Below, piece by piece: positions 24,604 through 34,112 of a stretch of DNA of 38,197 nucleotides; positions within the stretch are counted from its first letter, which is position 1; each line of letters begins with the position of its first letter. The stretch is taken from assembly GCA_037445575.1 (NCBI GenBank), contig JBBIKH010000003.1, positions 1,094 through 39,290 on the forward strand, read 5' to 3'. The stretch comes from a bacterium. Lineage in GTDB: Bacteria > Zhuqueibacterota > Zhuqueibacteria > JANLFK01 > Oleimicrobiaceae. The position numbers were made by a program, and so were the translations under genes. The notes under the pieces are model-generated. The model saw only the letters and a list, made by a program, of their open reading frames with translations. It searched no databases and had not been told where the DNA came from.

Positions 24604-24678
24604 GGGCGGTTAGCTCAGGTGGTTCAGAGCGCCTGCCTTACAAGCAGGAGGTCACTGGTTCGAGTCCAGTATCGCCCA
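24604..24678 (+). tRNA. tRNA-Val (anticodon TAC); full CCA not encoded
   Basis: Acceptor GGGCGGT/ATCGCCC, anticodon arm CCTGC-cttacaa-GCAGG, T arm GGTTCGAGTCC; followed by A-CCT. Confidence 0.96.
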
Positions 24679-24685
24679 CCTGAAC

Positions 24686-24763
24686 GGGGTCGTGGTGCAG
24701 CTTGGTTAGCACACTGGCCTGTCAAGCCAGAGGTCGCGGGTTCGAGTCCCGTCGGCCCCGCCA
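24686..24763 (+). tRNA. tRNA-Asp (anticodon GTC), CCA encoded
   Basis: Acceptor GGGGTCG/CGGCCCC, anticodon arm CTGGC-ctgtcaa-GCCAG, GGTTCGAGTCC, discriminator G then CCA. Confidence 0.96.
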
Positions 24764-27139: not shown

Positions 27140-27694
27140 CTACTCTGCGTTGGCCTTTTGCTTTTGGCGCGGTGAGGCAAACAGGTGGCCGACCGCCTCT
27201 GCGGTGAGCACGCGGTAGGCGGGCGCGTTGGCGCGCCGGTAGGCATCGGAGTGGTGCATAGCGGCCACGCCACCTGCCCTCAGCAAGGCGTCTATTTCCT
27301 CCACCTCAGCGAAGGCAAAAGGGAGTTCTCCTTGCCGCACACAGTGCGCGAACTGGTCCCAGAGGGCCAAGAGCTCCTCCTTGCTGCCGCTAAGCCCTCT
27401 GGCCGACTGCAGAAGCGCCTGCCACAGAGCGGTCAGATCGCCACCCCGTTGCTTGTACGGGCGCAGGTTGAGGCGCAACGCTGTTCCGGACGGCGAGATA
27501 GGTTCTAGCAAAAGCTCGCCAGCGTCCGGCTTGAGGTGGGCAAACTCTTCCGCGAGCGCGGAAAAAGCCTCCTCCGGGTGTGCCAGCACATGCCCCGGGC
27601 CGAACACCGCCTGGTAGAGCATTTTGTACACGTCTTGCACCTGCAGATTGCGGTGATGCGCCAAGTGCCAGCGCACGAGCTCCTGCACGGTCAT
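27140..27694 (-). CDS. Hypothetical protein with QDxYKxxYQxxFGxGH and HHSxxYRxxxxPxYRV motifs
   Basis: ATG at 27694 overlaps the upstream TGA (ATGA coupling); motif-like His/Tyr-rich segments. Confidence 0.8.
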   Translation of the reverse strand: MTVQELVRWHLAHHRNLQVQDVYKMLYQAVFGPGHVLAHPEEAFSALAEEFAHLKPDAGELLLEPISPSGTALRLNLRPYKQRGGDLTALWQALLQSARGLSGSKEELLALWDQFAHCVRQGELPFAFAEVEEIDALLRAGGVAAMHHSDAYRRANAPAYRVLTAEAVGHLFASPRQKQKANAE

Positions 27695-28590
27695 GTTGAT
27701 CTGCCTTGACGATGGTGGCGGCGCAAACGGGTTCGGCTCATCGCCGGCGGTTCCTGGCACAGGGGGCAGACAAAGCACCGCTGCCTCCCGCACAGTATGC
27801 TTGCCACGGGGCTCCCGCATCGCCAGCATGTGCGGTTGCGAGCATCCCAGCCGATGGCGCGAAATCTGCCGGCTTTGCCGTACACGTCGACAAAGCCCGT
27901 GGTCGCCGTTCCCCCTTTTTCCAGCACCTTGTGGAGCACAACCCTGGTTGCTTCCAACAGGGCCCGCTGTTGCGGCAGGGTGAGGCAGCCTGCCTTCGTC
28001 CGCGGGTGGAGACGGGCGTGCAGGAGGATCTCGTCGGCGGTCGGGCCATCGAGCCCTGCGATGCGCCGCGGGTCGAGCAGTAGGGTACGCACCAGCCTCC
28101 CCGCACTGCGCGCGAGGGTGGCACGGAGCACCTCCATGTCAAAGTCAGCCGAAAGCACGTCGGGTCCCAATCCCTTGAGCGGAGGCTGACGATGGACGTT
28201 GGCGGTTGGCACTAACCTCGCCGCTTCCGGTGCAGGCAACCCCACCAGCAAGCAGGTGTTCTCCTGGAAGCGAACTACGATCCCGTCATGACGGCAGTCC
28301 GTTCCTTGTTGCTCTAGCCAGCGAATGCTTCCTCCACCGGCGAACTGGAGCGCCAGTGAGAGCCTCGTGTCCATGTCAATGAGCAGGCAAGCGGCGACGC
28401 GTCGGACTCCAGCCACGCGTGAGCCCCACAGGAGGGCTTGCGGATGTGGGGGTAGATGCGGAGCATACGCTCCAGGGAAGTCGGCGTTCACTATCTTTTT
28501 GCCGACAGCGCATGCGCGCAGCTGCTCGCACCAGATTGCCACTTCCGCGGCGTTCCTGGTTTGTTGCAAGGCCTCACGCGGGGCGGCCAT
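27691..28590 (-). CDS. Fpg/Nei (MutM)-like protein, catalytically degenerate
   Basis: LGPD, H2TH-like LLLDPRRIAGL..ADEILLHARLHP, C-terminal zinc finger CWRC...CPLCQ; lacks the N-terminal PE motif. Confidence 0.82.
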   Translation of the reverse strand: MAAPREALQQTRNAAEVAIWCEQLRACAVGKKIVNADFPGAYAPHLPPHPQALLWGSRVAGVRRVAACLLIDMDTRLSLALQFAGGGSIRWLEQQGTDCRHDGIVVRFQENTCLLVGLPAPEAARLVPTANVHRQPPLKGLGPDVLSADFDMEVLRATLARSAGRLVRTLLLDPRRIAGLDGPTADEILLHARLHPRTKAGCLTLPQQRALLEATRVVLHKVLEKGGTATTGFVDVYGKAGRFRAIGWDARNRTCWRCGSPVASILCGRQRCFVCPLCQEPPAMSRTRLRRHHRQGRST

Positions 28591-28726
28591 AGCTCACCTG
28601 CTCGCGGTCTCTCTCCAACGCAAGCCTTCCTTCAGCGCACAGGGCATACCCACGTTCTGCACATTGCAAAGATAGCAAAGATACATCACAAATGCACGTC
28701 GCAAATGCGGGCTCCCAGCTGCGCAT

Positions 28727-29464
28727 TCAGCTGGCCGTCAGGCTAGACATCGCTGCCTGGACTTCCTCAAAATAGGAGCTGGACAGAAACTTTGTCAGTC
28801 CTTCCCTCCGGTAGATCGATAGTACCTTGTGGGCGTAGTTCATCCGGTCAACGAGCACCTCGTCGACGAGTCCTTGCAGCATTGCTGCCAGGCGTTGCGG
28901 GTTCATGGGGAGGGCCGGCCCGACAAAGGCGTAGGTGCGCACGCCTGCGGCCTTGAGGGCAGCTAGCGCCGTGAGCCGTTCGGCGATGGGTGGCGCATGG
29001 GGCTCAAACAGGCGGCGCATTCGCTCGTCGTCGGTGGTGATGGTCAACCCCACTTCGCATTCCGGGAGTGCACGCAGCACATCAAGATCGCGCGTGACAA
29101 GCGGCGACTTGGTAAGGATGGAGACCGGAAACAGCGTGCGCGCCAACACCTCGAGACAGCGACGGGAAACGGCGTAGCGTCGCTCCAGCGGCTGATATGG
29201 GTCGGTCACCGTGCCCAGCGAGACGACGCCTGGGCGGAGCCGCGCCACATCCCTCTCCAGCTGGTCCGCTGCATTTACCCTCACGTCGACGAACCTCCCC
29301 CACGGCTCCCGGTGATTGGTGAAGCGCCGCATAAAGTCTGCGTAGCAGTAGCGACACCCGTGCGCACACCCGACGTAAGGGTTCAGCGCGTAATCGATGC
29401 CGGCGATGCGAGAAGGGGTCAAAGCGGACTTGCAGCGAATCTCCTTGATCAGGACGGCGGGCAT
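28727..29464 (-). CDS. Radical SAM protein, SplB-like/Rv2578c (COG1533) family
   Basis: LNPYVGCAHGCRYCYA, TDPYQPLE, ILTKS, FEP. Confidence 0.9.
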   Translation of the reverse strand: MPAVLIKEIRCKSALTPSRIAGIDYALNPYVGCAHGCRYCYADFMRRFTNHREPWGRFVDVRVNAADQLERDVARLRPGVVSLGTVTDPYQPLERRYAVSRRCLEVLARTLFPVSILTKSPLVTRDLDVLRALPECEVGLTITTDDERMRRLFEPHAPPIAERLTALAALKAAGVRTYAFVGPALPMNPQRLAAMLQGLVDEVLVDRMNYAHKVLSIYRREGLTKFLSSSYFEEVQAAMSSLTAS

Positions 29465-29490
29465 ATCCCTACCGCACCTCTTCCAGCCAC

Positions 29491-29991
29491 TCAGGCCTCC
29501 TCCTCGGGCGGCAGCGGGTGCTTTTGCTTCCGGGAGTAGCGCTTCCGGTCGCGGTGGACAACCGTAGGCTTGGGCAGCGGCTTGCGCAGGGACTTGTACA
29601 ACTCGTCCACCTTGATGCGCGTCGTGGTCTTTTTCTTGTGGGTGGCAGCTCCCACCGACGCCGAGCTATCGGTTGGAGGGCGTTGCCGATGCTCTCGGGA
29701 ACGGGGGGCGCAGATGAGGCTTTCCTTGGCTGTCCTGGAAAGGCGCTTCAGGGCCTGCTCACGACGCCGTGCTTCTGTGAGGGAAGCGCATTCCTCCCAA
29801 TGGACGAGGACAACGGGTCGGCGCGTGCGCGTGTAGCGCGCGCCGCCGGGTAGCTCGCCGTTATGCCGGCGCAAACGCTCGGCGACATCCTTGGTGCAGC
29901 CGGTGTAGTACGACCCGTCCCTGCAGCGGACGATGTAGACGTAATGCCTACTCTCTTTCCCCTGACGCGCGCTATCTGCCCCTCGATTCAT
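29491..29991 (-). CDS. GIY-YIG nuclease (YazA/YhbQ-like) with basic C-terminal extension
   Basis: YVYIVRCRDGSYYTG, RLRRHN, GARYTRTRRP, ARRREQALK; about 70 extra C-terminal residues. Confidence 0.88.
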   Translation of the reverse strand: MNRGADSARQGKESRHYVYIVRCRDGSYYTGCTKDVAERLRRHNGELPGGARYTRTRRPVVLVHWEECASLTEARRREQALKRLSRTAKESLICAPRSREHRQRPPTDSSASVGAATHKKKTTTRIKVDELYKSLRKPLPKPTVVHRDRKRYSRKQKHPLPPEEEA

Positions 29992-29992
29992 G

Positions 29993-31498
29993 CTACATTT
30001 GCTCCAAGAAATGGTGCCGGGTCACACGCGCGACCACCCCAGAAAGTAGCAACAGCCCCACGAGATTGGGGAAGGCCATGATGGCATTCGCGGTATCGCC
30101 AATGTACCACACGATGTTCAGGTATTTGCCGGTCATAAGCGCGCCAAGGAAGAGCAAAGTGATGTACACGAAGCGGTAGGGCATGGTGGACTTTACGCCC
30201 CAGATGTACTCGATGCACTGTTCCCCATAGTATGCCCAACCGATCAGCGTGGTGTAGCCGAACAGGAACGAGCCAATAGCAACGATCCAACCGCCGAAGG
30301 GGATGACCGAATTGAAGGCCGTGGTGGTGAGGGCCGTGCTTGACAGCCCGCCGTTCGAAAGGTCGTACCCGATGCGGGTTGCAAACTCCTGGGCAGCCTT
30401 GGGCAGGGTAGCTAGAACCTCCGGGGCCAGGCGACTTCCCTCTCGCAGCAACTCCACCCCCGCCGCCGGTGTGAGCACCCACACCCCCGTAACCACGATG
30501 GTCAAGGTGGTTAGGGTGTTCACGAGCAGAGTATCGATGAATACGCCGGTCATGGCGACGAGCCCATTGTAGGTGGGATCAGGCGACTTGGCAGCCGCTT
30601 GGGCGATGGCCGCCGATCCGAGGCCCGCCTCGTTGGAAAGGACCCCGCGTCGTACGCCCAGACTGATCGCCTTTTGCACGCTGGTGCCGAGCAAGGCGCC
30701 GCCCGCCGCTTGCAGGGAAAAGGCCGAGCGCACGATCAAGACAAAGGCATCATCGATAGCCGTCGCCCTCGCAATGAGAATAATGAGCGCCCCTGCGAGA
30801 TAGAACAGGATCATAGCGGGGACTAAGCGCTCAGCCACTGCCCCGATCCGTTTGATGCCGCCGATGATCACCAACCCCACAAGCAGGGTGATCACCACCG
30901 CGCTCACCAGCGTGGGCACCTGAAACTGCGTTTTGAAGGCCAGGGCCATGGAATTGGACTGCATCATGTTGCCGGTGCCGAACAGAGCCGTAAAGGCGCC
31001 GCACACAGCAAATACCATCCCCAGCGTCTTTGCCAGAGGCTGCCATTTGATGCCGTAGCGGCAGTAATACATGGGCCCGCCGGCCATGGAGCCGTCTTCT
31101 GCCACTTTGCGGTATTTGACGCCCAGGAACCCTTCCGCGTACTTGGTGGCCATGCCGAAGATGGCGGAGACCCACATCCAGAATGGCGCGCCTGGGCCAC
31201 CGGTGGCGATGGCCGTAGCCACACCGGCGATGTTACCGTTCCCCACGGTGGCCGCCAAGGCAGTCATCAAGGCGGCAAACGGCGAAATGTCCCCCTGCTT
31301 CTCGTGTACGGAGCTTTTTTTTGAAGCTCCGCTCAGGGCAAACTTCAAGGACAGAAAGAATTTGCGCACCTGGATGCCCCGCGTCACCACCGTCAGCACT
31401 ACGCCAGTGCCGCAGAGGAGGATGACCATCCAGTTGCCCCACATAAAGTCGGCAAGTGTCTGGGAGATGCGCAGAAGCTGTTCGAGAAAGGCCGTCAT
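29993..31498 (-). CDS. Alanine/glycine:cation symporter (AGCS family)
   Basis: ATVGNGNIAGVA, GGPGAPFWMW, GGPMYY, SNEAGLGS, many TM helices. Confidence 0.95.
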   Translation of the reverse strand: MTAFLEQLLRISQTLADFMWGNWMVILLCGTGVVLTVVTRGIQVRKFFLSLKFALSGASKKSSVHEKQGDISPFAALMTALAATVGNGNIAGVATAIATGGPGAPFWMWVSAIFGMATKYAEGFLGVKYRKVAEDGSMAGGPMYYCRYGIKWQPLAKTLGMVFAVCGAFTALFGTGNMMQSNSMALAFKTQFQVPTLVSAVVITLLVGLVIIGGIKRIGAVAERLVPAMILFYLAGALIILIARATAIDDAFVLIVRSAFSLQAAGGALLGTSVQKAISLGVRRGVLSNEAGLGSAAIAQAAAKSPDPTYNGLVAMTGVFIDTLLVNTLTTLTIVVTGVWVLTPAAGVELLREGSRLAPEVLATLPKAAQEFATRIGYDLSNGGLSSTALTTTAFNSVIPFGGWIVAIGSFLFGYTTLIGWAYYGEQCIEYIWGVKSTMPYRFVYITLLFLGALMTGKYLNIVWYIGDTANAIMAFPNLVGLLLLSGVVARVTRHHFLEQM

Positions 31499-31542
31499 TT
31501 CCGCTCCCTTCCAACGGTACGGTCATTACCTCGCACTGCACT

Positions 31543-31571
31543 ATGATAAGAAAAAATCCCACGATTGTCAA
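31543..31571 (-). promoter_or_regulatory. Putative sigma70 promoter for the AGCS-GIY-YIG-radical SAM operon
   Basis: Minus strand TTGACA-17 bp-TATCAT. Confidence 0.65.
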
Positions 31572-31600
31572 CACCTATTTGCGCCCAGGACCTTTTCTCC

Positions 31601-31629
31601 TTGACTTTCAACAGCGGTTGTTGTACACT
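31601..31629 (+). promoter_or_regulatory. Putative sigma70 promoter for the parB-like/splB-like operon, with an inverted repeat in the spacer
   Basis: TTGACT-17 bp-TACACT; spacer contains CAACA-gcggt-TGTTG (31609-31623). Confidence 0.6.
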
Positions 31630-31678
31630 TCGCAAGACCATGTTGCAGCCTCGGCGCCCGCTTGGAGGAATGTGGACC

Positions 31679-32665
31679 ATGGACTTCCAGGAGCAGATCG
31701 ATCGCAGGCTGGCTAAGGTGAGCCTGGCGGAAATTGACCTCCACGACCCCTACTACCAGATCAGCTACGGGGCGGTGCCATCGACTTTAATCGATTCCTT
31801 GCGCACCGCCGGCGTGATCAATCCCCCCACTCTCCAGCGGAAGCAGGACGGACGGTGGCGCATCGTGGCCGGTTTTCGCCGCTGTGCCTTCTGCCAAGAG
31901 CAAGGGGCAAAGAAGATCACGGCCTGGTGTGTGGAGAATGTTGCCCCAGAGCTATCCCTCTTCATCTGGGCCGTGTGCGACAACCTCGGAGTGCGCCAAC
32001 TCAATACCGTGGAGTGCGCCATCGTGCTTGCCAAGCTTCATGGGCAGTTTCGCATCCCGAAAGGGGACCTGGCGCGTCGTTACATGCCCCTGTTGGGCCT
32101 TGGCAGTAGCACCGAGCTGGTGGAACGGTATCTACGCCTTGCGGCCCTTGAAGAGCCGATGCGCGAGTGGCTGGCGGAGGAGTGGCTTTCACAGGAGGCG
32201 GCGTTTCAGCTCGTGGAGATGGCACCTGACGAGGCGCGCGCCCTGTTTGCCGTCATCGCAGCGCTGCGTTTGGGCAAGAACTACCAGCGGGAGTTGATCC
32301 GTCTTGCATACGATGTGGCGCGAAGGGAGGCGCTCAGCATCAGAGAACTGGTTGCCTCTCCGGAACTGCGGGCAGCTATGCAGGAGCAAGAGCTGAGCCC
32401 TGCTCACAAGGCCGAGCGGGTGCTGGGCTGGCTGCGAGAGCGGCGTTTCCCCCGTCTGGCGCTCGCCCGGAGGCGGTATGCAGAACTGGTGCGGCAATTG
32501 TCCCTGCCGGCCAACATTCGCCTCTCGCCTCCCCCTTACTTCGAAGGGGCTGAATGGTATTGTCAGCTGCAGTTCGCAAGCCAGGAGGAACTGCGGCAGA
32601 TGGCAGAGCGCTTGCAGAAAATTGCACAATGCGCAGAGCTGCAGCAGCTCCTCCTTCTGCCATAA
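31679..32665 (+). CDS. Orphan ParB/Srx N-terminal domain protein
   Basis: GGAGG RBS; SLRTAGVINPPTL, IVAGFRR, DNLGVRQLNTVECA (ParB box I/II and ENxxRxxLxxxE-like); C-terminal QFASQEEL resembles the ParB dimerisation domain. Confidence 0.82.
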   Translation: MDFQEQIDRRLAKVSLAEIDLHDPYYQISYGAVPSTLIDSLRTAGVINPPTLQRKQDGRWRIVAGFRRCAFCQEQGAKKITAWCVENVAPELSLFIWAVCDNLGVRQLNTVECAIVLAKLHGQFRIPKGDLARRYMPLLGLGSSTELVERYLRLAALEEPMREWLAEEWLSQEAAFQLVEMAPDEARALFAVIAALRLGKNYQRELIRLAYDVARREALSIRELVASPELRAAMQEQELSPAHKAERVLGWLRERRFPRLALARRRYAELVRQLSLPANIRLSPPPYFEGAEWYCQLQFASQEELRQMAERLQKIAQCAELQQLLLLP

Positions 32666-32683
32666 GATGGAGGGGAACTCACC

Positions 32684-33769
32684 ATGCCCGCGGAACCGTT
32701 TGCCCCTAGGCATGTCTTCGTCGAGGAGGAGGTGGCGGACCTGCCTCTGACCAAGCGAGTGCTCAGTCGCTTGCCAGGGGTTCGCCCGGTCGTCCTGGCT
32801 GAAGGGGAGGGTCCTCCGCAGCTTATGGAGGTGGAAGCGCACAACGCCTTGGTCTTGGCCAGGCAGCGCGGTCGATTCGTGAAGCGCTGTCCCGGCACCA
32901 GAGGGTACCTGTGTTGCGGCTATCTGAACCTTAATGTCGCCATGGGTTGTGACATGGCCTGCGAGTACTGTATCCTCCAGGGCTACTTGTCCAGGCCAAT
33001 GATCACCCTGTTCGTCAACACCGATGACCTTTGGCGTGAGCTGGATGAATTGCTGCAGCAGACAAGGCGAGTGGTCAGGATTGGGAGCGGGGAACTGGCA
33101 GACAGCCTAGTCTGCGATCACCTCACCGACCTCAATGGGGAACTCGTGCGCTATTTCGCCGATCAAAAGCAGGCGTTGCTCGAGCTCAAAACCAAGAGTG
33201 ACCGCATAGAGTCGTTGCTGGGAATTGATCACGGGCGGCGGACTGTGCTCTCCTGGTCATTGAACAGCGAGGCAATGCGCACGGCCCATGAGGCAAGGAC
33301 TGCCCCCCTGATGCGGCGTCTGGAAGCGGCTCGCCTGGCCCAGGGGGCAGGGTACCGCCTTGGTTTCCACTTTGACCCGCTCATCTGGTACGAAGGATGG
33401 CAGCAGGATTATCAGGATGTGGTTGACCAACTTTTCAGCTTGGTGCGGCCGGAGAACATCGTCTGGATCAGCCTGGGGGCCCTGCGTTACCCGGCGCAGA
33501 TGGACCGCCTCATCCGCACGCGCTACCCACGGAGCGCCCTTCCTCTTGGTGAGCTCGTCCCGGGGGAGGACGGCAAATGGCGTTACTTCCGTCCACTTCG
33601 TGAGGAGATGTTCCGCTGGCTGTATCAACGCATCAAGCGGTACGCGCCGCAAGTTGCCGTCTATCTGTGCATGGAGAGTGACCAGGTCTGGCGTCGTTCC
33701 TTCGGCTGGTCGCCCAAGGACAGCGCAGGTCTTGCCCGCCTGCTTGATCAGCGCGTGCTTATGCCCTAG
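32684..33769 (+). CDS. Spore photoproduct lyase (SplB)-family radical SAM protein
   Basis: N-terminus PFAPRHVFVE, GCDMACEYC, DHLT, LKTKS, RLEAA, GFHFDPLI..EGW..Y; collinear with SplB as recalled. Confidence 0.88.
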   Translation: MPAEPFAPRHVFVEEEVADLPLTKRVLSRLPGVRPVVLAEGEGPPQLMEVEAHNALVLARQRGRFVKRCPGTRGYLCCGYLNLNVAMGCDMACEYCILQGYLSRPMITLFVNTDDLWRELDELLQQTRRVVRIGSGELADSLVCDHLTDLNGELVRYFADQKQALLELKTKSDRIESLLGIDHGRRTVLSWSLNSEAMRTAHEARTAPLMRRLEAARLAQGAGYRLGFHFDPLIWYEGWQQDYQDVVDQLFSLVRPENIVWISLGALRYPAQMDRLIRTRYPRSALPLGELVPGEDGKWRYFRPLREEMFRWLYQRIKRYAPQVAVYLCMESDQVWRRSFGWSPKDSAGLARLLDQRVLMP

Positions 33770-34058
33770 TCCACTCTGATGAGACTACGCTCTCGGGCTT
33801 ACCCGCAAAGCCACCTTCACTCCCCGCTTTCTTGCCTGAGCAAGCCCAGTCGACCCCAGCGAGGGGGCAATCGCGGTAGCCGGACCGTGTTCCGCCGGCA
33901 ATACGACACGTGCCATTTCCCTCGTCGAAAGGGGGTGCCCACGTGCGTGGGTTGCTACGACCTTTAGGCCCTGCTTGCCGCGGCACACAGCACTAGGCGT
34001 TTGCCAGAGGATTGAGCTTTACATGGATGCACAACCTCACGCCTTCAGCATGCTGCAG

Positions 34059-34093
34059 GCACCGTCGGGGTGGGCTGTCCACACCCACGGTGT
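34059..34093. terminator. GC-rich hairpin between convergent genes
   Basis: CACCGT..GGGTG-loop-CACCC.ACGGTG about 20 nt past the regulator stop; no U tract. Confidence 0.25.
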
Positions 34094-34112
34094 GATGGCG
34101 CCAAAGGGCCGG

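Follow-up and report, generated by a model that had tools for sequence, protein, structure and literature searches.

A conserved ParB-like protein and a spore photoproduct lyase-like radical SAM enzyme encoded side by side: candidate subunits of a system acting on DNA

The analysis of a 38,197-nucleotide stretch of bacterial DNA (hereafter, the window) has revealed two adjacent genes, coding for a ParB-like protein and for a radical SAM enzyme with the fold of spore photoproduct lyase (SPL), whose products may be two subunits of one conserved system, in which the former assists the latter in acting on DNA, a reading to which an even chance is given here. To our knowledge, direct DNA repair by a radical SAM enzyme has been described for SPL alone, and SPL is regarded as peculiar to spores. 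The SPL scaffold described here, with the surroundings of its active site rebuilt, is encoded by a near-universal chromosomal gene in several phyla, whose members are non-sporulating and mostly anaerobic. No description of the pair was found in the non-subscription literature searched, and the main text and those supplementary files examined of a survey of the ParB-CTPase fold (PMC12704722) are silent on radical SAM, photoproduct and SPL.

The order of the two genes, the 18 bases between the ParB-like stop and the SPL-like start, and the full-length SPL homologue in second place, all described in an earlier note made from the sequence alone, agree with the open reading frames (Table 1). The ParB-like frame is open from 31565 to 32665 on the forward strand and ATG 31679, nine bases past a GGAGGA sequence, is the likely start of the gene, with ATG 31640 and ATG 31670 as alternatives. 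The start at 31601 given earlier coincides instead with a sigma-70-like site and not with the beginning of the gene; the region contains three such sites, matches to the consensus only, where shuffled sequences would give 0.5. The 340-base gap located 3' of the operon contained no structured RNA at the Rfam gathering threshold, and the window showed two tRNAs elsewhere.

Table 1. Positions in the window of the two genes and of the features discussed in the text
Feature	Position	Strand	Remarks
Sigma-70-like promoter site TTGACT-17-TACACT	31601..31629	+	9/12 consensus matches; upstream of the ParB-like gene
ParB-like gene, 328 aa	31679..32665	+	start chosen by GGAGGA at 31664-31669
GFRR, aa 65-68, counterpart of ParB box II GERR	31871..31882	+	G65 in 44/44 and R68 in at least 90% of 44 sequences
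DNLGVRQLNTVE, aa 101-112, counterpart of ParB box III ENLQR..LNP.E	31979..32014	+	
R-F-P-R-L...A, aa 256-263, family motif 'RYP'	32444..32467	+	predicted contact with the SPL-like hairpin (256-260, 263)
P-Y-F-E-G-A, aa 286-291, family motif 'FFEG'	32534..32551	+	touches the SPL-like enzyme in the predicted complex (286-291)
SPL-fold radical SAM gene, 361 aa	32684..33769	+	ATG 32684 preceded by GGAGGGG
CPGTRGYLCC, aa 69-78	32888..32917	+	C69, C77 and C78 invariant; C77 and C78 within a 6-residue insert
CDMACEYC, aa 89-96, radical SAM CxxxCxxC	32948..32971	+	Y95 (SplB Tyr97) kept; I97 replaces Tyr99
E137, column of SplB Cys141	33092..33094	+	invariant, 81/81
LPLGELVPGEDGKWRYFRPLR, aa 285-305, counterpart of the SPL beta-hairpin	33536..33598	+	where the ParB-like protein is predicted to dock
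C329 (YLCME) and C-terminal extension absent from SplB	33668..33766	+	residues 332-334 in the predicted interface

The second protein has the SPL fold, with the CxxxCxxC motif and the SAM ligands, yet it is not an SplB equivalog. Its structural model matched SPL with a Z of 36.3 in VIA (rmsd 1.9 A, 319 residues, residues 4-330), the next structural family being viperin at Z 14.3, and with E 2e-26 and TM 0.80-0.85 in Foldseek. The Pfam SPL model PF20903 was passed with 122.5 bits (cut-off 27), and both TIGR04070, the SplB equivalog (129.2 bits, cut-off 400), and TIGR03886, the SPL family protein (67.4 bits, cut-off 437.55), failed. Identity to SplB is about 25%, and a long, well-supported branch lies between this family and SplB in the tree. 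When conservation was counted over 81 family sequences, C89, C93, C96, K171, S192, R268 and K298 were present in all of them, the last four corresponding to SplB K175, S196, R274 and K310. In SPL, Lys175 and Ser196 are SAM ligands and Arg274 and Lys310 hold the phosphate between the two lesion nucleotides. The fold, the CxxxCxxC motif, these four residues and Tyr97 are what the enzyme shares with SplB of Bacillus and Geobacillus (PDB 4FHC and related entries, TIGR04070).

Replacement of Tyr99 by Ile and of Cys141 by Glu had been claimed by eye, and the alignment to PDB SPL chains and to annotated Bacillus and Clostridium SplB has confirmed it (CEYCIL vs CHYCYL, RIGSGELADS vs RFEA(A/S)CTSD), the Tyr99 column of the 81 sequences being divided among Ile (64), Val (14) and Ala (3). 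The extra cysteine cluster noticed at the same time (RCPGTRGYLCCGY) is also present, and C329 is as invariant as C69, C77 and C78 (81/81). C329 is carried by an extension of about 30 residues at the C-terminus, and the structural match to SPL stops at model residue 330. The four invariant cysteines could mean a second metal cluster and a chemistry unlike that of SPL. His229 and Asp231 are, together with E137, new invariant polar residues. The hairpin is 6 residues shorter and devoid of the Arg-Tyr tip, with a gap at SplB R305/Y306 in the 11 family rows aligned (11/11), and its residues E290, G294, K298, R300 and Y301 are each found in 81/81 sequences. The aromatic tip of the SPL hairpin (Tyr305 in Geobacillus) is thought to flip the lesion out of the helix. 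A substrate different from that of SPL, as the earlier note had proposed, is plausible from the gain of E137, H229 and D231 and the loss of Tyr99 and the hairpin tip.

The loss of the H-donor, which had also been proposed, held for the Cys141 column, with Glu in 81/81 sequences, but C69 aligns near an alternative cysteine. In Clostridium SPL, a cysteine located upstream stands in for Cys141 as H-donor (Benjdia 2012, PMC3467042). The column of SplB S77, which corresponds to this Clostridium cysteine, is occupied by C69 in 81/81 sequences, and MAFFT placed C69 within one residue of it, in a register uncertain by 1-3 residues because two HMMER alignments differ. Return of the H atom may thus be retained through C69. 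In the alignment, Clostridium-type SPL resembles the enzyme in having no cysteine in the Cys141 column and one about 20 residues ahead of CxxxCxxC; it differs in its Tyr99, its long hairpin, an Ala at the Cys141 position and the lack of both the CC pair and Cys329. The TIGR03886 SPL family protein (Deinococcus, Actinobacteria and others) is likewise an SPL-related radical SAM enzyme of non-sporulating bacteria, and a Deinococcus example shares the Glu at the Cys141 position. In the tree, however, this protein lies outside the family, and it has Tyr99 but neither CPGT..CC nor YLCME.

These data bear on another explanation, in which the enzyme would be an ordinary SPL of non-sporulating bacteria using C69 for H return, and the ParB-like protein a transcriptional regulator in the position of splA. 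The complete SPL fold, the Pfam score, the conserved SAM- and phosphate-binding residues and the cysteine at the Clostridium position are all in agreement with it, as is the small regulator gene splA that precedes splB in Bacillus records, SplB being accompanied by SplA where the present enzyme is accompanied by the ParB-like protein. Nevertheless, this explanation is considered unlikely, since the equivalog score is far under the cut-off, the branch separating the family from SplB is long and well supported, the hairpin tip is deleted, and E137, H229, D231 and three further cysteines are invariant additions. In addition, the named hosts, as taken from record titles, are mostly sediment and anaerobic lineages, and they are non-spore-forming as judged by their names.

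The first protein contains the ParB N-terminal fold and the ParB helix-turn-helix (HTH). The HTH_ParB model of Pfam was passed with 24.3 bits (cut-off 22.6); ParB_N gave 21.2 bits, under its cut-off of 26.3, and the protein was also under the curated cut-offs of TIGR00180 (35.2 vs 58.45) and Noc (42.6 vs 315). The family profile recovered Myxococcus xanthus ParB, Noc and Spo0J with E 1e-19 to 1e-22 and a PDB ParB with E 8e-23 over profile positions 11-180. The AlphaFold model (pLDDT 95.2, pTM 0.87) had as nearest structures CTP/CDP-bound ParB, Noc and KorB in Foldseek (probability 1.0), and it matched ParB structures in VIA with Z 10.5-12.1. The C-terminal strand-strand-helix aligned, by alignment only, with the C-terminal domain of the canonical ParB of the same genome. 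The ParB architecture read earlier from GFRR, DNLGVRQLNTVE and the C-terminus is therefore supported by motifs, HTH_ParB, profile and model. A helical insert of about 75 residues (LRLGKNxQxE...RYP) is specific to the family. For the C-terminal half, Atlas returned unnamed clusters only; VIA gave generic helical matches for residues 199-258 (Z up to 6.5) and no match for residues 259-328, which leaves this half without an assignable fold.

The N-terminal fold, the HTH, the Gly..Arg of box II, the N..R..E of box III and the C-terminal strand-strand-helix are shared with ParB/Spo0J, Noc and KorB. In contrast to these proteins, no parA accompanies the gene in the window, the QPR motif is missing, GERR has lost its Glu and the insert is present. 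The absence of a nearby parA, claimed earlier, was borne out by a Pfam scan in which none of about 27 large window ORFs was ParA-like; a canonical parA-parB pair sits on another contig of the same genome, and the ParA-binding motif [LFI]G[KR]G[LFI] was not seen by eye in the ParB-like translation. The CTP motifs (NPxQPR, GERRxRA, ENLQR), under their usual names and roles, were compared in the letters of this canonical ParB. What the family keeps of them is limited to G65, R68 and, from box III, the N..R (N102, R106): the NPxQPR P-motif is missing, Phe, Leu, His, Ser or Tyr occupies the place of the GERR Glu, and one unlinked Desulfobulbus copy lacks R68. Canonical CTP hydrolysis by the ParB-like protein is unlikely in view of these losses, and the description of the protein as a CTPase clamp, made in the earlier note, is not supported by these motifs.

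A true CTP-gated sliding clamp, which would load at a specific site and carry the enzyme along the chromosome, would agree with the ParB N-domain fold bearing the four residues mentioned, with the nucleotide-bound state of the closest structures and with the complete ParB architecture, the aligned C-terminal domain included. This possibility is quite improbable when confronted with the motif losses just described and with the AlphaFold model, in which the domains are packed as one compact body while canonical ParB is flexibly linked. No inverted repeat was seen at 31480-31700, upstream of the ParB-like gene, and no parS-like palindrome was common to more than 2 of 46 operons in a crude test in and near them, results that count neither for nor against such a clamp.

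A survey of gene neighbourhoods has shown that the two-gene module postulated earlier is conserved. The ParB-like gene was directly upstream of the SPL-like gene in 47 of 80 SPL-like loci, which span KSB1, Zixibacteria, Calditrichota, Acidobacteriota, Thermodesulfobacteriota and others, and the SPL-like gene was directly downstream in 30/30 loci chosen by the ParB-like profile, a set that includes the window itself and shares genomes with the 80 loci. Among 167 hand-sorted genomes of the phylum, both genes were found in 105, the ParB-like gene only in 14, the SPL-like gene only in 5 and neither in 43, so that 19/167 were discordant; the genomes in these counts are related, and independence is therefore overstated. 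When clade genomes without the adjacency were inspected, a full-length ParB-like gene was found elsewhere in 5/5. In one family, nine genomes carry the ParB-like gene but, of SPL-like genes, just a longer paralogue located on a different contig; in the one such locus examined, the ParB-like gene adjoins unrelated genes. The idea that the N-terminal extension of about 125 aa in a longer SPL-like paralogue of about 435 aa is homologous to the ParB-like insert, as a Rosetta-stone fusion would require, was unsupported (hmmsearch up to 4.6 bits; hhalign probability 1.1%, E 0.05, with the expected region aligned), and this paralogue occurs in genomes without the ParB-like gene.

The complex of the two proteins, whose prediction had been proposed in the earlier note, scored 0.79 in each of three runs, the best of 3 controls giving 0.00, and binding is thus predicted. 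The mark that this score passes was attained by 116 of 157 solved complexes but by 2 of 215 mismatched pairs, counts that hold roughly because our own alignments were used. We know of no solved SPL-ParB complex, and for this reason a score owed to a structure memorised by the predictor is unlikely. The contacts agreed at 100% among runs, with partner pLDDT of at least 86. In the models, the 'RYP' and 'FFEG' motifs of the ParB-like protein are predicted to dock on the shortened hairpin; R256 and P258 are each present in 95% of 44 sequences and F288 is invariant in the same set. The ParB-like interface is more conserved than random sets (mean 0.59 vs 0.42, reached by 5 of 10,000 such sets). The conservation of the SPL-like interface does not exceed that of the remaining residues, which are themselves very conserved (value reached by 3007 of 10,000 random sets). 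On the SPL-like side the predicted interface comprises residues 74, 285, 287-290, 292-295, 302-305 and 332-334, residues not listed being merely uncertain. A mere regulator in the splA position would need neither such an interface nor retention of the unlinked gene in the 5/5 genomes mentioned above.

It is common for a radical SAM enzyme to act on a protein whose gene adjoins its own, and the ParB-like protein could be the substrate, one of its residues being modified post-translationally by the SPL-like enzyme. The tight and confident predicted interface, made by the most conserved ParB-like motifs, would suit this role, and so would the unlinked ParB-like gene of Desulfobulbia, which has an HU gene beside it in 2 of 4 loci examined. 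It is, however, very unlikely, as the listed contacts (hairpin, 74 and 332-334) include none at the cluster loop, E137, H229 or D231, and retention of both SPL lesion-phosphate ligands argues for a nucleotide substrate.

DNA as the substrate of the SPL-like enzyme is inferred from homology and neighbours. A gene for SSB lies within 4 kb in 18/80 loci, in two arrangements, and a UvrD/PcrA-like helicase of about 1000 aa abuts the ParB-like gene in 6/80; a DNA-directed role fits these neighbours and the retained phosphate-binding Arg and Lys. One orthologous GT2 glycosyltransferase (40-69% identity across phyla) is operon-linked in 19/80 loci, in the orders GT2-ParB-SPL (6) and GT2-SPL (13) and often with overlapping stop and start codons, a linkage that is not explained by plain repair. 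GT2 is ruled out as an obligatory third subunit in the genome of the window (89% complete), which has no orthologue: its best hit scored 109 bits and covered two thirds of the profile, where orthologues score 415-473 bits. A defence system was rejected as well, as PADLOC assigned 0 families to either protein at E up to 0.01. No restriction, nuclease or mobile-element context was found at the loci, where the neighbours are housekeeping genes.

The GT2 linkage raises the alternative of DNA modification, in which the SPL-like enzyme would generate a radical on a base (for example at the thymine methyl) and install or prime a modification, GT2 would glycosylate that modification in the lineages where it is linked, and the ParB-like protein would target or activate the reaction on double-stranded DNA. 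Phage ParB-like activators of thymine-modifying enzymes belong to pathways that add bulky groups, as described in PMC13229309, and the new invariant polar residues and the four-cysteine set in or near the active site would also be compatible. This alternative is regarded as improbable, in view of the missing GT2 orthologue in the genome of the window, the lack of restriction, nuclease or mobile-element context together with the blank PADLOC result, and the fact that GT2 enzymes mostly act on envelope sugars.

In the ParB-assisted DNA system favoured here, H abstraction at a dinucleotide-type DNA site, as in SPL, would be the most likely first step, because the SPL scaffold, SAM and phosphate ligands and a cysteine at the Clostridium position are kept. 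The lesion directly reversed would be of a cross-link type, either in place of spore photoproduct or in addition to it. The ParB-like protein is predicted to clamp the shortened hairpin through 'RYP' and 'FFEG' and would supply DNA binding and access to double-stranded DNA. Weighing against this system are the unexceptional conservation of the SPL-like interface, the discordant genomes of the phylum, the GT2 linkage and the different chemistry that the four invariant cysteines could bring. A bolder reading, advanced tentatively and rather doubtful, is that a ParB-fold protein was recruited to handle DNA for a radical SAM enzyme, the two forming a new and widespread oxygen-sensitive pathway of direct DNA reversal or modification in anaerobes. 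Such a pathway could reverse carbon-carbon cross-link lesions arising without oxygen or, in GT2 lineages, prime a glycosylated thymine-type base, and the four invariant cysteines would form a second metal cluster absent from SPL.

A precedent is a phage thymine dioxygenase that needs a ParB-like activator on double-stranded DNA, in which conserved NTP residues are dispensable (PMC13229309). The 5mYOX-ParB pair is similar in that a ParB fold is encoded beside a DNA-base enzyme and in that the NTP residues are unneeded there and degenerate here. The phage system involves an Fe/2-oxoglutarate dioxygenase, a ParB without DNA-binding domain, phage genes and no stable complex trapped, whereas here an SPL-fold radical SAM enzyme, an HTH, chromosomal and widespread genes and a confident predicted interface are found. 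If the complex is real, the jobs of the ParB fold extend past segregation to assisting an enzyme on DNA, a role so far shown solely for phage thymine dioxygenases, and the pair offers a defined two-protein system for asking which DNA damage or modification is handled by radical chemistry in anoxic life. A word-based homologue search with the ParB-like protein gave just 11 close relatives; the SPL-like family is present at no fewer than 590 loci in the species genomes of GTDB, and the ParB-like profile recovered 2,262 clusters at 50% identity over the full library (E up to 1e-30).

The ParB-architecture and SplB-homologue genes that the earlier note had placed 18 bp apart were confirmed by the open reading frames, the Pfam matches and the AlphaFold models of both products. 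A scan of the gap between the two genes gave no promoter-like or terminator-like site, and therefore a single operon is likely from the sequence. The genes located around the pair are of the housekeeping type. As the note had also claimed, no ParA-like ORF was found among the roughly 27 large ORFs scanned in the window, and the canonical parA-parB pair of the source genome (assembly of 3.55 Mb in 351 contigs, 89% complete) is located on a different contig. The SPL-like gene of the window is the only SPL-family gene in this genome.

Features of the ParB-like/SPL-like locus and its surroundings
Feature	Position	Strand	Remarks
Two adjoining tRNA genes	24604-24760		Rfam
Fpg/Nei-like glycosylase	27691-28590	-
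Radical SAM protein, 245 aa	28727-29464	-	Nearest families 'mobile pair B', PA0069 and Rv2578c, all far under cut-offs
GIY-YIG protein	29491-29991	-
Sodium:alanine symporter			Upstream of the pair, divergent
Sigma-70-like site TTGACT-17-TACACT	31601-31629	+	Consensus match, 5' of the ParB-like gene
ParB-like ORF, 328 aa	31679-32665	+	Best start ATG 31679; spacing of nine bases from GGAGGA
SPL-like ORF, 361 aa	32684-33769	+	After GGAGGGG; intergenic gap of 18 bases
Sigma-54 response regulator, histidine kinase, phosphonate-binding protein			Downstream of the pair
Pyruvate kinase, PFK, ComEC, CoaE, DivIVA			More distant from the pair

The ParB-like and SPL-like genes are co-inherited, and the two-gene module proposed in the earlier note was borne out by surveys carried out from both sides. 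When the species genomes of GTDB were scanned with a pattern, at least 590 SPL-like loci were obtained, from which 80 were retained. In 47 of these 80 loci (47 by profile, 43 by tblastn) the gene immediately 5' of the SPL-like one, in the same orientation, is a ParB-like ORF, the hosts being KSB1, Zixibacteria, Calditrichota, Acidobacteriota, Thermodesulfobacteriota, Fidelibacterota and others. Among the 33 loci without an adjacent ParB-like ORF, at least 4 have less than 800 bases of upstream sequence, and 22 form a single well-supported clade, mostly Desulfobulbia, in a quick IQ-TREE run. A full-length ParB-like gene was found elsewhere in the genome in 5/5 genomes from this clade (141-221 bits, profile positions 4-319), adjoining an HU gene in two of the four loci read; in the Desulfobulbia-type loci L119 and L121 the unlinked gene is directly 3' of an HU/IHF-type gene. 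From the other side, the SPL-like gene was found directly downstream in 30/30 of the best ParB-like loci in the phylum of the window, a set that includes the window and overlaps by genome with the 80 enzyme-side loci.

Hand sorting of 167 genomes of the phylum gave 105 with both genes, 14 with the ParB-like gene only, 5 with the SPL-like gene only and 43 with neither, and these pair counts come from related genomes and are not independent events. The five genomes with only the SPL-like gene and 5 of the 14 with only the ParB-like gene are 76-95% complete, so that some of them may reflect assembly gaps. The remaining nine belong to one family, in which the sole SPL-like gene is a longer paralogue on a different contig and the ParB-like gene has unrelated neighbours in the one locus read; this family is a real exception to the pairing. 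The tallies contain two unpublished genomes (G158 and G162), and no claim is based on these two alone.

The SPL-like enzyme matched the Pfam SPL family (PF20903) with 122.5 bits, but it fell far under the cut-off of the curated SplB equivalog (129 bits vs 400) and under that of the 'SPL family' model TIGR03886 (67 bits vs 437). Its AlphaFold model (35 homologues in the alignment, pLDDT 88.1) superimposed on the Geobacillus SPL over 319 residues (VIA Z 36.3, rmsd 1.9 A, model residues 4-330), the second-best structural family being viperin with a Z of only 14.3, and Foldseek concurred (E 2e-26, TM 0.80-0.85). Residue columns were counted in 81 sequences (the window and the 80 related loci), aligned with the SplB proteins annotated in B. 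velezensis, B. cereus and one Clostridium and with two plasmid-encoded 'SPL family' proteins. The CxxxCxxC motif, Tyr95 (SplB Tyr97), the SAM ligands K171 and S192, and R268 and K298 are invariant in 81/81 sequences. The last two are the counterparts of SPL Arg273 and Lys309, which hold the internal phosphate of the lesion in the SPL crystal structure (PMC3467042).

Other positions differ from SplB. As the earlier note had read from the single sequence, the Cys141 column is occupied by Glu (81/81) and the Tyr99 column by Ile (64). The remaining sequences have Val (14) or Ala (3) in the Tyr99 column, and Glu is also found in the Cys141 column of a Deinococcus 'SPL family' protein. Relative to SplB, the hairpin is shortened by six residues and its Arg-Tyr tip is gone, His229 and Asp231 are invariant (FHFDP vs GFIVAP in SplB), and there is a C-terminal extension of about 30 residues that is absent from SplB. 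Four extra Cys are invariant, namely C69, C77 and C78 of the cluster noted earlier and C329, the last one immediately before this extension. The claim that the H-donor Cys is lost holds for the Cys141 column, but C69 shares a MAFFT column with the Clostridium SPL Cys, in a register uncertain by 1-3 residues as two HMMER alignments disagree. That Clostridium Cys spatially replaces Cys141, and the Geobacillus residue there is Ser76 (PMC3467042). Return of the H atom by a Cys may thus persist in the SPL-like enzyme. Overall, the SPL scaffold is intact with its SAM and phosphate ligands, the substrate pocket has been rebuilt and the hairpin tip has been lost. In a less likely rival reading, the enzyme is an ordinary SPL and the ParB-like protein its regulator.

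The single ParB-like protein was over the Pfam threshold for HTH_ParB and slightly under it for ParB_N, with weak NCBIfam matches to Noc and ParB. A profile of 44 family members matched M. xanthus ParB, Noc, Spo0J and C. crescentus ParB (E 1e-17 to 8e-23), over profile positions 11-185 only. The very confident AlphaFold model (pLDDT 95.2, pTM 0.87) had nucleotide-bound ParB, Noc and KorB as best structural matches and, in VIA, the pNOB8 ParB-N domain (Z 12.1), PadC (10.7) and Spo0J (10.5). In the second half of the protein, the Atlas search turned up no named relative and the structural search nothing convincing. The family comprises 2,262 representatives at 50% identity (E up to 1e-30) in a library of 1.84 billion proteins and is uniform in length, the best 150 of the 2,262 having 281-362 aa.

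The NPxQPR, GERR and box III motifs of ParB proteins have roles in CTP binding and hydrolysis. When compared to the canonical ParB of the same genome, the ParB-like protein lacks the NPFQPR motif and shows GFRR instead of GERR, with only G65 (44/44) and R68 (at least 90%) conserved in the family, whereas the Asn, Arg and Glu of box III are retained. It also carries an insert of about 75 residues behind the HTH (consensus LRLGKNxQxE ... RYP), and the canonical C-terminal domain aligns with its final 50 residues (LPP...PFFEG...strand...helix). With these motif losses CTP hydrolysis looks unlikely, and nucleotide binding may or may not be retained. A true CTP-gated clamp, the rival contained in the earlier note, agrees with the structural matches to nucleotide-bound ParB and is disfavoured by the missing NPFQPR and the replaced Glu. 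The note's interpretation of a CTPase clamp serving a radical SAM enzyme was therefore supported in part, for the conserved pair and the predicted binding but not for the CTPase. The pair is kin to the SPL-type radical SAM enzymes and to ParB-assisted DNA enzymes, and it is not assigned to SplB or to the CTP-clamp ParBs because tests for defining features of each family came out negative.

Prediction of the complex gave a score of 0.79 in 3/3 runs for the two proteins, the best of three controls reaching 0.00. In a benchmark that is only rough here (own alignments), this mark was reached by 116/157 solved complexes and 2/215 mismatched pairs. Contact agreement between runs was 100%, with a partner pLDDT of at least 86. 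To our knowledge no ParB-SPL complex has been solved, and a score resting on a memorised structure is therefore unlikely; the models support binding of the two proteins to each other.

The predicted interface comprises ParB-like residues 212, 215-216, 256-260, 263, 286-291 and 328, which take in the family motifs RYP and FFEG, and enzyme residues 74, 285-295, 302-305 and 332-334, of which 285-295 and 302-305 belong to the shortened hairpin and 332-334 lie beside C329. Invariant E290 of the enzyme contacts ParB-like residues 256-260, including the nearly invariant R256, and F302 (conserved in 76/81) contacts the invariant ParB-like F288. Conservation of the ParB-like interface exceeds that of random sets (0.59 vs 0.42; 5/10,000 sets reach the value), but no excess was found for the enzyme interface (3007/10,000), because conservation is high throughout the enzyme. 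One patch holds both residue 74 and residues 332-334, which indirectly supports the idea that the C69-C78 loop and C329 are spatial neighbours, an arrangement that a metal site would require. The ParB-fold protein with its HTH is predicted to grip the shortened hairpin. In an improbable rival reading, the ParB-like protein would itself be the target of modification by the enzyme.

In the favoured reading, the SPL-like enzyme would remove an H atom at a dinucleotide-type site in DNA, and the ParB-like partner would provide the DNA binding and duplex access that the enzyme's own hairpin has lost. The reaction would undo a lesion of the cross-link type, either in place of spore photoproduct or in addition to it. 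The closest precedent is a phage thymine dioxygenase that requires a ParB-like activator only for double-stranded DNA, the canonical NTP residues being dispensable in that case (PMC13229309). Database names for the two proteins are limited to 'DNA photolyase', 'SPL family radical SAM protein' and 'ParB N-terminal domain-containing protein'. No description of the pair was found in literature outside subscription journals, and radical SAM and SPL are unmentioned in the main text and searched supplements of the 2025 ParB-CTPase fold survey (PMC12704722).

Other genes are linked to the pair. One orthologous GT2 glycosyltransferase is operon-linked in 19/80 loci (GT2-ParB-SPL in 6, GT2-SPL in 13), with 40-69% identity across phyla, and this link favours a rival reading of the pair as a DNA modification pathway; the orthologue is absent from the genome of the window (89% complete) and has no NCBIfam equivalog match. 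The linked GT2 is a soluble protein of about 280 aa, and its gene is coupled in translation to the one for the ParB-like or the SPL-like protein (L003, L016, L019, L020, L024, L034 and 13 Desulfobulbia-type loci). A cultured Desulfobulbus rhabdoformis strain (L069) is among the carriers of the GT2-SPL type. An SSB gene lies at 4 kb or less in 18/80 loci; in those of KSB1 type it is upstream and divergent, and in Desulfobulbia it follows downstream in the same orientation (two examples checked). A protein of about 1000 aa, with a TIGR00375-family N-terminal part and a UvrD/PcrA-like helicase, abuts the ParB-like gene in 6/80 loci; in L001, L009, L010, L014, L015 and L027 this fusion ends at or overlaps the ParB-like start.

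The longer SPL-like paralogue (about 435 aa, loci L124-L143) occurs in 36/167 genomes of the phylum, mostly those without the ParB-like gene. It retains all four extra Cys, with E137 changed to Gln, D231 to His and R268 to Thr, and its N-terminus is extended by a conserved stretch of about 125 aa (FQEFRQVVE..RDL.MWGE ... PK.YP), whose homology to the ParB-like insert is not significant. In the window, about 340 bases (33770-34112) separate the SPL-like gene from that of the sigma-54 regulator, which runs towards it, and contain no notable ORF, no Rfam match at the gathering threshold and no convincing terminator. Three more DNA-repair-type genes are located 1.6 kb upstream of the pair, past the symporter (27691-29991, minus strand).
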